In this document: piece by piece, positions 11,386 through 14,300 of the stretch
How the letters are laid out: the number at the start of each line of letters is the position of its first letter
How positions within the stretch are numbered: the first letter of the stretch is position 1
From: Dictyostelium discoideum
Lineage: Eukaryota
Direction: 5' to 3'
Length of the DNA: 64,000 bases
Assembly (NCBI GenBank): GCA_000004695.1
Contig: CM000150.2
Coordinates: 3,712,001 to 3,776,000 of the forward strand
Program-made: the position numbers and the translations under genes
The notes under the pieces: generated by a model
Database searches by the model: none
The model's input: only the letters and a program-made list of their open reading frames with translations
Told to the model about the DNA's origin: nothing

Positions 11386-14300
11386 TTAATTTTCATCTAA
11401 ATCCTTATCTTCTTTAGTTTTTGAATTGGTATTATGATTTGAAGTAGATTCTTCTGATTCATTCATTTGATGCAATAGTTTTGAAAATTTAATTTCTAGA
11501 TGGAGAGAAATTTCAGAAAATGAAGGTCTTTTTGATTTTTCTTTTATCCAACAACATTCAATTATTTTTCTAATATCATCATCTATTGTATCCAAATCAG
11601 CAGTTGGTCTAAATCCATCCTGTACACGATTTGGTATATCATTATAACATATTTCATGGAATGGTATTTTCTCGACCATTACCTCATATAATGAAACTCC
11701 AAAGGCATACACATCTGCTGATTTTTGATATCCTTCGCCGTCAAAAACTTCATTTGGTAAATAATTCATAGTTGAATCTGGCTTTGATTTGGATTCCTTT
11801 TCACCCAATTCTAAAATAAAATGAAAATTAGTAATTAGTAAACTTTATTTTTTTTTTTTTTTTTTAAAAGAAAATGCTTACCTTCGCTGTTACCAAAATC
11901 ACAAATTTTAACACAAACCCCACTTATTTCTTTTGAAAAAACCAATAAATTATCTGGTTTTATATCACCATGGACTATTTCGCTTGCATGTAAGAAAGTA
12001 AAACCTTTTGCAGCATCTAACATAAACCTTTTAATAATAAAATAAGTTAGAATTTGTTAATGAAAAAAAAAAAAAAAAAAAAAAAAAAAAAAAAAAAAAA
12101 AAAAAAAAAAAAAAAAAAAAAAAAAAAAATCTATACTTACTTGACTTTTTGAATGAATGATAATTTGATTTTTGAATCATGAATCAATGAACCAAGTGAA
12201 CCTTCTTTTGCATACTCTGTAACAATACAAACGTGAGAAATATTTTGAGCACTACCAATATATCTGACCACATTAATATTGTTCACCTTTGATAGAATTT
12301 GTACTTCATTTTTGATTTTTTCAAAGCTTTTTGAATTATCACTGATTGCGAACTTTTTAACTGCAACTGCTAAATCTCTGTAATATCCTTTAAATACGTA
12401 AACTTTTGATGGGAGGTATGATGCGATAAGTTGTTCGGTTTTAATTTCTTTATAATCAAGCTAAAATTTATTCGAAAGGTAAAAAAAAAAAAATTAGTAA
12501 AAGGGAATAAAGGAAAAGAAAAAGATAAAAAAAAAAGAAAACTTACTTTTAGAGAAGTCTCTGATTCTACATGAACAGAAAGGAATGTGTGACATTTAGA
12601 ACCTTGTGCCTCAACTAAAACTGCAAAATTTTCTAAGAACTAAAGGGAAAAAATATATTTTAGTTAGTATTAATACAAATTTAAGGAAAATTTAGATTTA
12701 AAACTTACTTTAGTTGTACATGTTAGTGTTAGAGAGAATTTTACTTCAGTGGTGCAATGTGGTAGTAATTCAAATGATTCATTGAAAATTTCGACCTATA
12801 TTTAACAAAATAAATTAATTATTTATACAAAATAAAAAATGAAAAAAAAAAAATAAAACATTTAAAATACTCACACAACCGGTTTCAATGTTTTGTGGGA
12901 AAATAATATTCACTAAATATGTAATTTCTGATTTGTTATGGATCATTAAAGAATCATTGATGACTTCATCATTCATACACTTTCTACCGTTTAGATTGAA
13001 TTCCAGTACCTGTTTATTGAATTGAAATGGGAATTCTTCACTTCCATAATCATATTGTCTTGAGAATTGAAGTGTTGAAAAAGAATTTAGTGATCCATAT
13101 TGAGGAGATTTAGTTTCTTCATTTGATAACTCAATGTCCTTTAATGATGGGTACTCCCTAATCTTCAAAATTGGATTATTAATTTGTTGATCTCTTTCAA
13201 TTAATTTCTGATCATCTGGTTTTGAATTGTCTTGTGGTTTCTCTTCAATAACTGTAGGTGGTTGTGAGACTATAATAGATTTATTTCCTTCTTTTATAGT
13301 GGCCATCTCATTTTCGTCATCATCTTTCTTTAGTTTTGAATTTGATTGAACTTTCTTAAAAATGCAGATCATAATTATTATTCCAATTAATAAAGCTAAA
13401 GATAGACAAATTGGTAAAGCAATTTTTAATTCTAAATTTTCATTTCTATCAACTGATATTTGTGTAATTGGCTTTGAAGTTAAAATTGGTGTTTGAGTTG
13501 GTGTTTGAGTTGGTGTATCAGTTGGTGTTTCAGTTGGTGTTTCAGTTGGTGTTTCAGTTGGTGTTTCAGTTGGTGGTTCAACTACAATGGATGAATAGGT
13601 TGCCATCGATGTTAAATAAATATCGCCTCTTGTTGTGAATGCAATATTTATCTTATCCAAAGAGTTTTTATTTTCAAATTTGAATGTAAAGTTATTGAAA
13701 GTTGGGAAAGTACTTTTAATTGGCTCCAATAGGAATACTGGTTGATTTTCAATATAAATTGATAATGGTGTTGGTTGATCATCAATTGGTAGATGTGTAA
13801 AAAATAATTGAATTTGATAATAATGTATTTTACTATTGATTTTTGTTGAAATTATCACTTTTTCATTTGGATTAATTGATGTTATACCATTTGAAAATAA
13901 CTTGTCAAGTTGAACAATTTCATCGAATTTGGTCTGATTGGCCACTTTTGGTAAGTCTGTTGAATATTTTGAATTCTGTGATATTGTGCAATTGCCATCA
14001 ACTTTATTACATCCATTTTGAAATAAATTACCTTCAAATGAAATTTGTTGGTTTGAATTTAAATTATCCATTAACCATCCTGAATAATACTCAATAATGG
14101 AATTACATACCAAATAGGTACTTATTGTTTTATTACCATCACTATTGATATTTAAAAGATATTTATTTAAAGAACCATTGGAATTTGTTGGATTGAACGA
14201 TGAATCTATAATAATAAGTTCAATTGGTTTTGAATTTAATAATGAACTATTATCTTGATTAGAATTTACAGAGTTCTTTGAAATAAAATAATAGTTGAAT

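Follow-up and report, generated by a model that had tools for sequence, protein, structure and literature searches.

Gdt8 of Dictyostelium discoideum, a receptor-like protein kinase without loop glycines, may be an atypical kinase rather than a degraded pseudokinase

Introduction

Can a receptor-like protein kinase that has lost every glycine of its glycine-rich loop still be a functional kinase? This question is raised by gdt8 of Dictyostelium discoideum, which lies on the minus strand at 11386..15938 of the stretch of DNA analyzed here (64,000 nucleotides, positions 3,712,001 to 3,776,000 of contig CM000150.2 in assembly GCA_000004695.1; hereafter, the window, numbered from its first nucleotide). 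A first-pass annotation of the window, made from the sequence alone, had described the product of this gene as pseudokinase-like based on its altered Gly-loop, HRD, and APE motifs and had suggested that it forms a signaling pair with an active neighboring paralog. Here, we present an analysis of the gene, its kinase domain, and its relatives. Our best explanation, which we regard as probable, is that Gdt8 belongs to the TKL kinases of the Dictyostelium-specific GDT family as a receptor-like protein with a type I transmembrane topology, and that its kinase domain is atypical but functional and not a degraded pseudokinase of the Gdt1/Gdt6 type.

Gdt1 and Gdt2 have been described as negative regulators of the growth-differentiation transition, and gdt1/gdt2, gdt2, and gdt4 mutants have a lowered sensitivity to polyphosphate. 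Gdt8 also matters for the question of whether signaling by the Gdt receptors, which have been implicated in polyphosphate sensing and in the switch from growth to differentiation, is catalytic or allosteric. Moreover, with its complete catalytic set next to the outright pseudokinase Gdt6 in the same clade, Gdt8 represents a natural experiment on the dispensability of the glycine-rich loop, in an organism that is genetically tractable.

gdt8 and its unusual motifs are already known and were tabulated in 2006. In the kinome table (Table S2 in Goldberg et al. 2006, PMC1420674), where the Gdt entries are Gdt1, 2, 3_ps, 4, 6, 8, and 9, Gdt8 is listed as "partial kd" and "aq" with the motifs VAVK / HGDIKPDN / DFG and the remark "lacks G52". 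By the criterion of that paper, a domain is predicted to be inactive if K72, D166, or D184 is lost, while "qualified active" designates 22 domains that have K72, D166, and D184 but are without G52, E91, N171, or D220. Gdt1 (ALLK / QKTLRARN / DLT, "multiple insults") and Gdt6 (VVLR / NCNIKSNN, "R instead of K72") are rated inactive (PMC1420674). What we add is the ancestral loss of the glycines in a clade of Gdt8, Gdt6, and a Dictyostelium citrinum paralog (P0014), the purifying selection on the kinase domain, and a 207-amino-acid (aa) deletion in the ectodomain relative to Dictyostelium cf. discoideum.

Results

gdt8 encodes a receptor-like member of the GDT family

The window has a GC content of 14-32%, its introns are short and AT-rich, and its gene content is that of D. 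discoideum. The spliced model of gdt8 comprises eight coding exons, in which all introns are GT..AG, and encodes a product of 1321 aa; its start and stop are those of the first-pass annotation. The main features are the following.

11386..15938, minus strand: gdt8 (DDB0220636), encoding a signal peptide, the gdt ectodomain, a Thr/Pro stalk, a transmembrane (TM) helix, a linker, a pre-kinase beta-sandwich, a TKL kinase domain, and a short tail
15938-15869, 15779-15558, 15477-12875, 12795-12709, 12639-12547, 12460-12141, 12027-11882, and 11810-11386, minus strand: the eight coding exons of gdt8
13358..13429, minus strand: TM helix (aa 781-804), located by a hydropathy scan
12547..13039, minus strand: pre-kinase domain of about 110-115 aa (aa 911-1025, exons 3-5), a predicted beta-sandwich (strands E32-114 in the AlphaFold2 (AF2) model; homolog matches start at query position about 92-110)
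11485..12460, minus strand: kinase domain (aa 1026-1289, exons 6-8, with introns at 12028-12140 and 11811-11881), as seen with Pfam, the match to human TAK1, AF2/Foldseek, and the ratio of nonsynonymous to synonymous substitution rates (dN/dS)

The first 399 aa of the protein are identical, without a mismatch, to the Gdt8 entry (DDB0220636) in Table S2, which stores the first 399 residues per protein, so that the match refers to those residues; the published fragments of the kinase-domain alignment of Gdt8 also match the window protein. The first 399 aa of the neighboring paralog are those of the Gdt2 entry (DDB0220631). The flagged gene is gdt8, and its neighbor is gdt2. Thus, the locus holds two gdt-family genes, as the first-pass annotation had proposed, while its idea that they correspond to the pair of an inactive Gdt1 and an active Gdt2 is not borne out.

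Besides its identity to the curated Gdt8, which places the protein in the GDT family of the TKL group, the protein has the architecture of this family, i.e., a hydrophobic segment at the N terminus (aa 4-23) and one TM helix. The ectodomain is 34% identical to that of Gdt2 over 502 aa and 58% identical over 175 aa, and it also aligns with 11 family representatives. The C-terminal part is a eukaryotic protein kinase domain of the TKL type, with Pfam matches to PK_Tyr_Ser-Thr (153 bits) and Pkinase (152 bits), and a neighbor-joining tree places it in the Gdt clade beside Gdt6.

Using an exhaustive representative search, we identified a Gdt8 ortholog (P0008, KAM9983764.1) in D. cf. discoideum, whose kinase domain is 96% identical to that of Gdt8 and whose intracellular half as a whole is 91% identical; a homolog search with the C-terminal 327 aa of Gdt8 had returned only seven distant kinases (26-32% identity) and no dictyostelid, although the ortholog was found by the exhaustive search. 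The ortholog has the motifs of Gdt8 (ASYLPSKVYVFKG / HGD / DFG / PNE), and its exon structure at the orthologous locus (L001 in GCA_054859205.1) is the same.

The glycines of the loop are absent and the catalytic residues are present

Within the kinase domain, the following motifs were located.

12386..12430, minus strand: beta1-loop-beta2 segment LIASYLPSKVYVFKG, the same in the ortholog, with a predicted hairpin
12407..12424, minus strand: ASYLPS at the positions of GxGxxG, with zero glycines and a two-residue insertion
12356..12367, minus strand: VAVK with the beta3 Lys (K1060, equivalent to K72), intact
12293..12313, minus strand: KNEVQIL, the alphaC segment with the Glu equivalent to E91, intact
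11949..11972, minus strand: catalytic loop HGDIKPDN, with Arg replaced by Gly (non-RD) and the catalytic Asp, Lys168, and Asn171 intact; the string is the same in Table S2
11892..11900, minus strand: DFG, intact
11749..11757, minus strand: PNE for APE, with the Glu retained; STMNYL precedes PNE, and the P+1 Thr is retained

Based on an alignment with Gdt2, TAK1, and a PKA reference sequence, which served only for residue numbering, Gdt8 retains K72, E91, D166, K168, N171, D184, the P+1 Thr, E208, D220, and R280. By contrast, its loop has no glycine and is two residues longer than those of TAK1 and Gdt2. The comparison of both kinase domains with profile hidden Markov models (HMMs), which the first-pass annotation had asked for, gave the same picture: both Pfam matches of Gdt8 begin at profile position 15 and leave the Gly loop unaligned, while the match of Gdt2 begins at profile position 3. 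The retention of the VAVK Lys and DFG and the replacements of HRD by HGD and of APE by PNE were therefore read correctly in the first-pass annotation. The loss of the loop glycines that it noted is also real; however, the string LPSKVYVFKG that it gave as the loop extends into beta2, and the final G is the conserved glycine after beta2 (YRG in Gdt2). Similarly, the interval 11386..12795 that it assigned to the catalytic domain also spans two pre-kinase exons.

The first-pass annotation had pointed out that a missed micro-exon might restore a canonical loop. Subdomains I-V, including the loop and VAVK, lie in one uninterrupted exon of 320 nucleotides (12460..12141), and we found no internal GT..AG option in this exon that keeps the frame and the flanking strands. 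Because the loop and VAVK share this continuous exon, no micro-exon can restore the Gly loop. Moreover, the ortholog has the same exon boundaries and the same loop, and the published curated Gdt8 protein shows the same motifs as the window model.

We predicted the structure of the pre-kinase region together with the kinase domain using AF2 and an alignment of nine sequences. The model has a mean predicted local distance difference test (pLDDT) score of 80.5 and scores of 85-98 in the kinase domain, and it has a canonical bilobal fold in which the hairpin of beta1 (E127-136), turn, and beta2 (E141-148) is kept with a pLDDT of 80-87. Compared with solved structures by Foldseek, the model is most similar to BRAF in an active dimer (TM-score 0.88, root mean square deviation 2.1 Å).

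The pre-kinase domain directly precedes the kinase domain in all Gdt proteins (aa about 1175-1284 in Gdt2). It is also present in amoebozoan TKL proteins without a Gdt ectodomain (P0116, P0123, P0129, P0130, P0118, and P0151 (Mastigella)), and in Pfam it gives only subthreshold hints of an ASH/PapD-like Ig domain (TMEM131_like_N, HYDIN_VesB_CFA65-like_Ig).

Loss of the Gly loop is rare, while HGD and PNE are not lesions

To judge each altered motif, we took a census of all kinase domains in the 150 best homologs from an exhaustive HMMER search, scored against a family HMM. Zero-glycine loops were present in only 3 of the 215 catalytically complete domains, two of these three from the Gdt8 clade, as opposed to 15 of the 107 domains that miss a catalytic residue. 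Thus, the loss of the Gly loop is rare and, statistically, "pseudokinase-like".

The other two replacements are different. Non-RD domains account for 31 of the 215 complete domains, and 10 of the 215 have Gly at the position of the HRD Arg, five of them together with a perfect GxGxxG. Moreover, Shk2 (HLD) and Shk4 (HND) are rated active in the kinome table (PMC1420674). We conclude that HGD, which makes Gdt8 a non-RD kinase and is kept within HGDIKPDN in the ortholog, is one of the ordinary non-RD variants rather than a lesion that inactivates the domain. A search of the PDB with the catalytic-loop segment gave no HGD-containing solved kinase among the top matches. IRAK1 and Pelle may carry HGD as well. 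At the APE position, Gdt2, Gdt9, and the D. citrinum protein P0014 have SNE, Gdt4 has SPE, and some members have SNQ, giving the family consensus YMS[N/P]E; having xNE at this position is a trait of the family, or family drift, and not particular to Gdt8. SNQ, in which the normally invariant Glu at E208 is replaced by Gln, occurs in the otherwise canonical Gdt-family domains P0020, P0021, and P0027, the last from Dictyostelium purpureum. Gdt2 is itself noncanonical: the neighbor that the first-pass annotation considered intact has HRD and DFG, but its loop is SEGTFG, with Ser for the first Gly as in Gdt4, and its APE segment is YMSNE.

As for the classes of the kinome paper, the operational pseudokinase has lost K72, D166, or D184; in Gdt8, VAVK, the Asp of HGD, and DFG are all present. 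Instead, Gdt8 belongs to the qualified-active class, lacking the G52 glycine and having E91, N171, and D220, and to the kinases without a glycine-rich loop sequence, with ASYLPS at the GxGxxG positions. In the description of Gdt8 as pseudokinase-like, the rare loss of the Gly loop therefore stands, whereas all three defining residues are kept and HGD and PNE are not lesions.

Glycine loss in the clade of Gdt8 and Gdt6

A Gdt-type ectodomain was present in 11 representatives, including the orthologs of Gdt4, Gdt6, and Gdt9 and members from D. purpureum, Acytostelium, and Synstelium. Among these, only Gdt8 (ASYLPS), the Gdt6 ortholog P0015 (SKNNLS), and P0014 from D. citrinum (AKNNVS) have no loop glycine; the remaining Gdt members have at least two loop glycines and mostly a full GEGSFG. 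In the neighbor-joining tree, Gdt8, Gdt6, and P0014 form a clade with a bootstrap value of 99.5%, and of 96.5% if the columns of the Gly loop, HRD, and APE are left out. Because the three glycine-less members form one clade, we conclude that the glycines were lost once, in its ancestor. The lineages then went separate ways: HRD and all else stayed in place in P0014, the HRD Arg alone was lost from Gdt8, and K72 disappeared from Gdt6 along with the HRD motif and the APE segment. The kinase domains in this clade are 44-48% identical to each other; nevertheless, all five catalytic residues are kept in both Gdt8 and P0014, despite more than 50% divergence since the glycine loss. That neither protein lost any of the five argues that the catalytic residues were still needed after the glycines were gone.

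P0014 (KAN0041936.1), which is glycine-less and otherwise canonical (HRD, DFG), has no obvious match among the Gdt entries of the kinome table. Possibly, D. discoideum has lost its counterpart, or the table does not include it.

The kinase domain is the most conserved part of Gdt8

We estimated selection by the Nei-Gojobori method from a comparison of the window with L001, i.e., from one species pair, and obtained the following dN/dS values.

Gdt8 kinase domain: 0.114 (264 codons, 14 amino-acid changes)
Gdt8 C-lobe: 0.084
Gdt8 N-lobe: 0.18
Gdt8 pre-kinase domain: 0.47
Gdt8 ectodomain: 0.58
Gdt8 C-tail: 0.97
Gdt2 kinase domain: 0.028 (1 amino-acid change)
Gdt2 ectodomain: 0.29

For the Gdt8 kinase domain, the ratio is significantly below 1 (p = 1.6e-11), and the constraint on this domain exceeds that on the ectodomain of the same protein (p = 3e-5). 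The dS in the kinase domain (0.20) is higher than the divergence of the introns (0.092); with the introns taken as the neutral reference, a ratio of 0.25 is obtained (p = 5e-6). Between the kinase domains of Gdt8 and Gdt2, there was no significant difference in the ratio of nonsynonymous to synonymous changes (p = 0.25). Hence, the kinase domain is the most conserved part of Gdt8 and is not decaying. This rules out that it is a relic, and it does not separate catalysis from a noncatalytic function.

Judging by the ectodomain dN/dS, evolution is much less restrained in the extracellular part of Gdt8 than in its kinase domain. In the extracellular part, an ectodomain stretch that is present in the D. 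cf. discoideum ortholog (L001 about 11792-12430) and in Gdt2 is absent from the window Gdt8, and the poly-Asn tract is 33 residues longer in the window Gdt8 than in this ortholog.

14075..14122, minus strand: junction of the in-frame ectodomain deletion of 207 aa (148 + 59) relative to the ortholog of the sibling species, from protein and codon alignments to P0008/L001

gdt2 and other features of the window

The neighbor of gdt8 has the following features.

1353..6689, minus strand: gdt2 (DDB0220631), six exons, 1637 aa in the spliced model
1632..2567, minus strand: Gdt2 kinase domain, with SEGTFG at 2514..2531, VAVK at 2469..2480, HRDLKPEN at 2110..2133, DFG within 2044..2061, and YMSNE at 1896..1910

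gdt2 and gdt8 lie on the same strand, 4.7 kb apart, and L001 is syntenic with the window, with an M1 aminopeptidase gene, an ERAP1_C fragment, gdt8, an unrelated gene, and gdt2. Despite this adjacency, the kinase domains of Gdt2 and Gdt8 are only 33-34% identical, and thus no closer to each other than either is to human TAK1. The nearest paralogs, Gdt4 for Gdt2 and Gdt6 for Gdt8, lie elsewhere, and gdt2 and gdt8 are not sister paralogs.

The gene between them (7677..10655, plus strand) is an open reading frame (ORF) of 992 aa with a hydrophobic C terminus and is kept at the syntenic position in L001 (15518-18668, 1015 aa). We considered this gene as a third Gdt member and rejected it, as a BLASTP comparison of its product with Gdt ectodomains gave no similarity and Pfam gave no match even at E <= 10.

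On the other side of gdt8, a segment of 584 bp at about 16340-16923 (minus strand) duplicates, in inverted orientation and with 98.5% identity, the 3' end of the M1 aminopeptidase gene at about 21514-22097 (plus strand). Its ORF of 129 aa (16354..16743) is 97.7% identical to the C terminus of the parent aminopeptidase, and the fragment is conserved in the sibling species, where an ERAP1_C gene of 154 aa is called (L001 8656-9411). Reading the translations of ORFs of 120 aa or more in 22000..64000, without a domain search, revealed no other kinase; by eye, ORFs in this part look like a Rho-family GTPase (23334..23939), an imidazolonepropionase-like protein (25738..26898), a frizzled-like receptor (29823..30851), and an importin-like protein (35988..38705). 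No tRNA genes or Rfam families were found in the window.

Discussion

We suggest the following scenario for Gdt8. All three P-loop glycines were lost in the common ancestor of Gdt8, Gdt6, and the D. citrinum paralog. Gdt8 afterwards lost the HRD Arg, becoming a non-RD kinase, and retains all residues that ATP/Mg binding and phosphotransfer require, together with a predicted canonical fold, under strong purifying selection. We infer that the domain still binds ATP. As to what follows from ATP binding, we favor a low-efficiency kinase that would be independent of activation-loop phosphorylation over a signaling module that would depend on nucleotide or conformation, which we consider a possible but lesser alternative. 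In both cases, Gdt8 would pass on a signal from outside the cell within the growth-to-differentiation or cell-density pathway of Gdt1, Gdt2, and Gdt4.

Several observations weigh against a functional kinase. Zero-glycine loops are enriched among domains deficient in a catalytic residue (odds ratio 11.5, p = 1e-5), and at the G52 position Gdt8 has a residue that is bulky or rigid, namely Tyr or Pro according to the alignment, in addition to the two-residue insertion in the loop. Gdt6, the nearest paralog, subsequently lost both K72 and the Asp of HRD, as expected if catalysis was already weak or dispensable in the clade. The N-lobe of Gdt8 evolves at about twice the rate of the C-lobe, its kinase domain has 14 amino-acid changes compared to a single one in Gdt2, and the selection test is based on a single species pair. 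Purifying selection and kept catalytic residues are also found in nucleotide-binding pseudokinases, so that they are no proof of phosphotransfer. Finally, we found no functional discussion of gdt8 in the main texts of the literature searched.

These observations lead to the principal alternative, that Gdt8 is a true pseudokinase, in which the loss of the Gly loop ended productive ATP binding or phosphotransfer and the domain serves as a scaffold, allosteric partner, or decoy, possibly for an active Gdt such as Gdt2, as plant non-RD ligand-binding receptors have RD co-receptors. We consider this possible, yet the less probable explanation. The complete absence of glycines at the GxGxxG positions, the insertion, the omission of the loop from the Pfam alignment, the association of such loops with degenerate domains, and the fact that the sister paralog Gdt6 is an outright pseudokinase all point in this direction; moreover, the non-RD receptor EFR signals without its own catalytic activity, the adjacency of gdt2 and gdt8 is kept in D. 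cf. discoideum, and a noncatalytic function would be compatible with the purifying selection. Against it, D166, N171, D184, and all other catalytic residues have been kept in both Gdt8 and P0014 over the long divergence since the glycine loss, Gdt8 does not fall under the standard definition and is listed as qualified active in Table S2, and two of the three "lesions" cited in its favor are none. As for the signaling pair of the first-pass annotation, a scaffold or decoy function paired with Gdt2 is possible; the support for this idea is limited to the adjacency of the two genes, and their kinase domains have a low identity and separate nearest paralogs.

Two further explanations concern the integrity of the gene. 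If Gdt8 were a decaying, functionless duplicate, i.e., an incipient pseudogene, the altered motifs and the short ectodomain would reflect neutral degradation. The 207-aa in-frame deletion and the expanded poly-Asn tract, the dN/dS of 0.58 in the ectodomain and a ratio of about 1 in the C-tail, and the precedent of Gdt3_ps, a recognized pseudogene of the Gdt family, are in line with this. However, the frame is intact over eight exons with canonical splice sites in two species, the motifs of the ortholog are identical, the kinase-domain dN/dS of 0.11 is below both neutrality and the intron divergence, and the pseudogene screen of the kinome did not flag Gdt8 (PMC1420674). We reject decay as very unlikely; it is largely refuted by the selection test. 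Even less credible, indeed almost negligible in our view, is a wrong splice model or a sequence error that hides a canonical GxGxxG: beyond the a priori possibility raised by the first-pass annotation nothing speaks for it, and it is at odds with the single open exon that encodes the loop, VAVK, and subdomains I-V, with the identical sequence and exon boundaries in an independent genome, and with the identical curated model.

The practical value of our analysis lies in a correction: gdt8 is already curated, and two of its three "pseudokinase" signatures, HGD and the family-wide xNE, are benign. More tentatively, we speculate that Gdt8 and P0014 may be a second independent case of a glycine-less active kinase after the coccidian WNG, here with the beta1-beta2 hairpin kept, or that Gdt8 may bind the ligand as the non-RD partner of an RD Gdt, e.g., Gdt2, in an amoebozoan parallel to EFR-BAK1. 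Although unlikely to hold as stated, both ideas are tenable because of the full catalytic set after more than 50% divergence, the dN/dS of 0.11, and the gdt2-gdt8 synteny.

Comparison with known systems

Within the family, Gdt1 and Gdt6 share with Gdt8 the receptor architecture, and Gdt6 also has 48% identity in the kinase domain and a glycine-less loop (SKNNLSTV). In contrast to Gdt8, which keeps all catalytic residues and is rated "aq", both lack catalytic residues, Gdt6 together with the APE segment, and are rated "i". Gdt2 resembles Gdt8 in family, architecture, and off-consensus motifs (SEGTFG, SNE); it differs by its two loop glycines, its RD loop, and the stronger constraint on its kinase domain (dN/dS 0.03 versus 0.11).

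Beyond the family, the plant receptor-like kinases EFR, XA21, and FLS2 are also without the HRD Arg, and both low in vitro activity and catalysis-independent signaling have been shown or proposed for this class. Non-RD kinases tend to have low activity; EFR autophosphorylates in vitro, and its signaling is independent of its own catalysis. The plant proteins belong to unrelated families with unrelated ectodomains, and they have Cys where Gdt8 has Gly; moreover, EFR keeps its Gly loop, and Gdt8 has no known co-receptor. The coccidian WNG1/ROP35 is similar to Gdt8 in having no glycine-rich loop and in keeping the VAIK Lys, the HRD Asp, and the DFG Asp, and WNG1 is active without the loop, with a Km for ATP of about 520 uM. 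However, WNGs have lost beta1, have a helical extension in place of the loop and a reorganized N-lobe, and carry DFE, whereas Gdt8 has a predicted beta1-beta2 hairpin and an intact DFG and belongs to an amoebozoan TKL clade that is phylogenetically unrelated to them. By sequence, the closest solved structure with full coverage is human TAK1 (MAP3K7), which is 33% identical over the domain (E = 2e-31) and has the same TKL-type subdomain layout; unlike Gdt8, TAK1 is cytosolic and has the canonical motifs GRGAFG, HRD, and APE.

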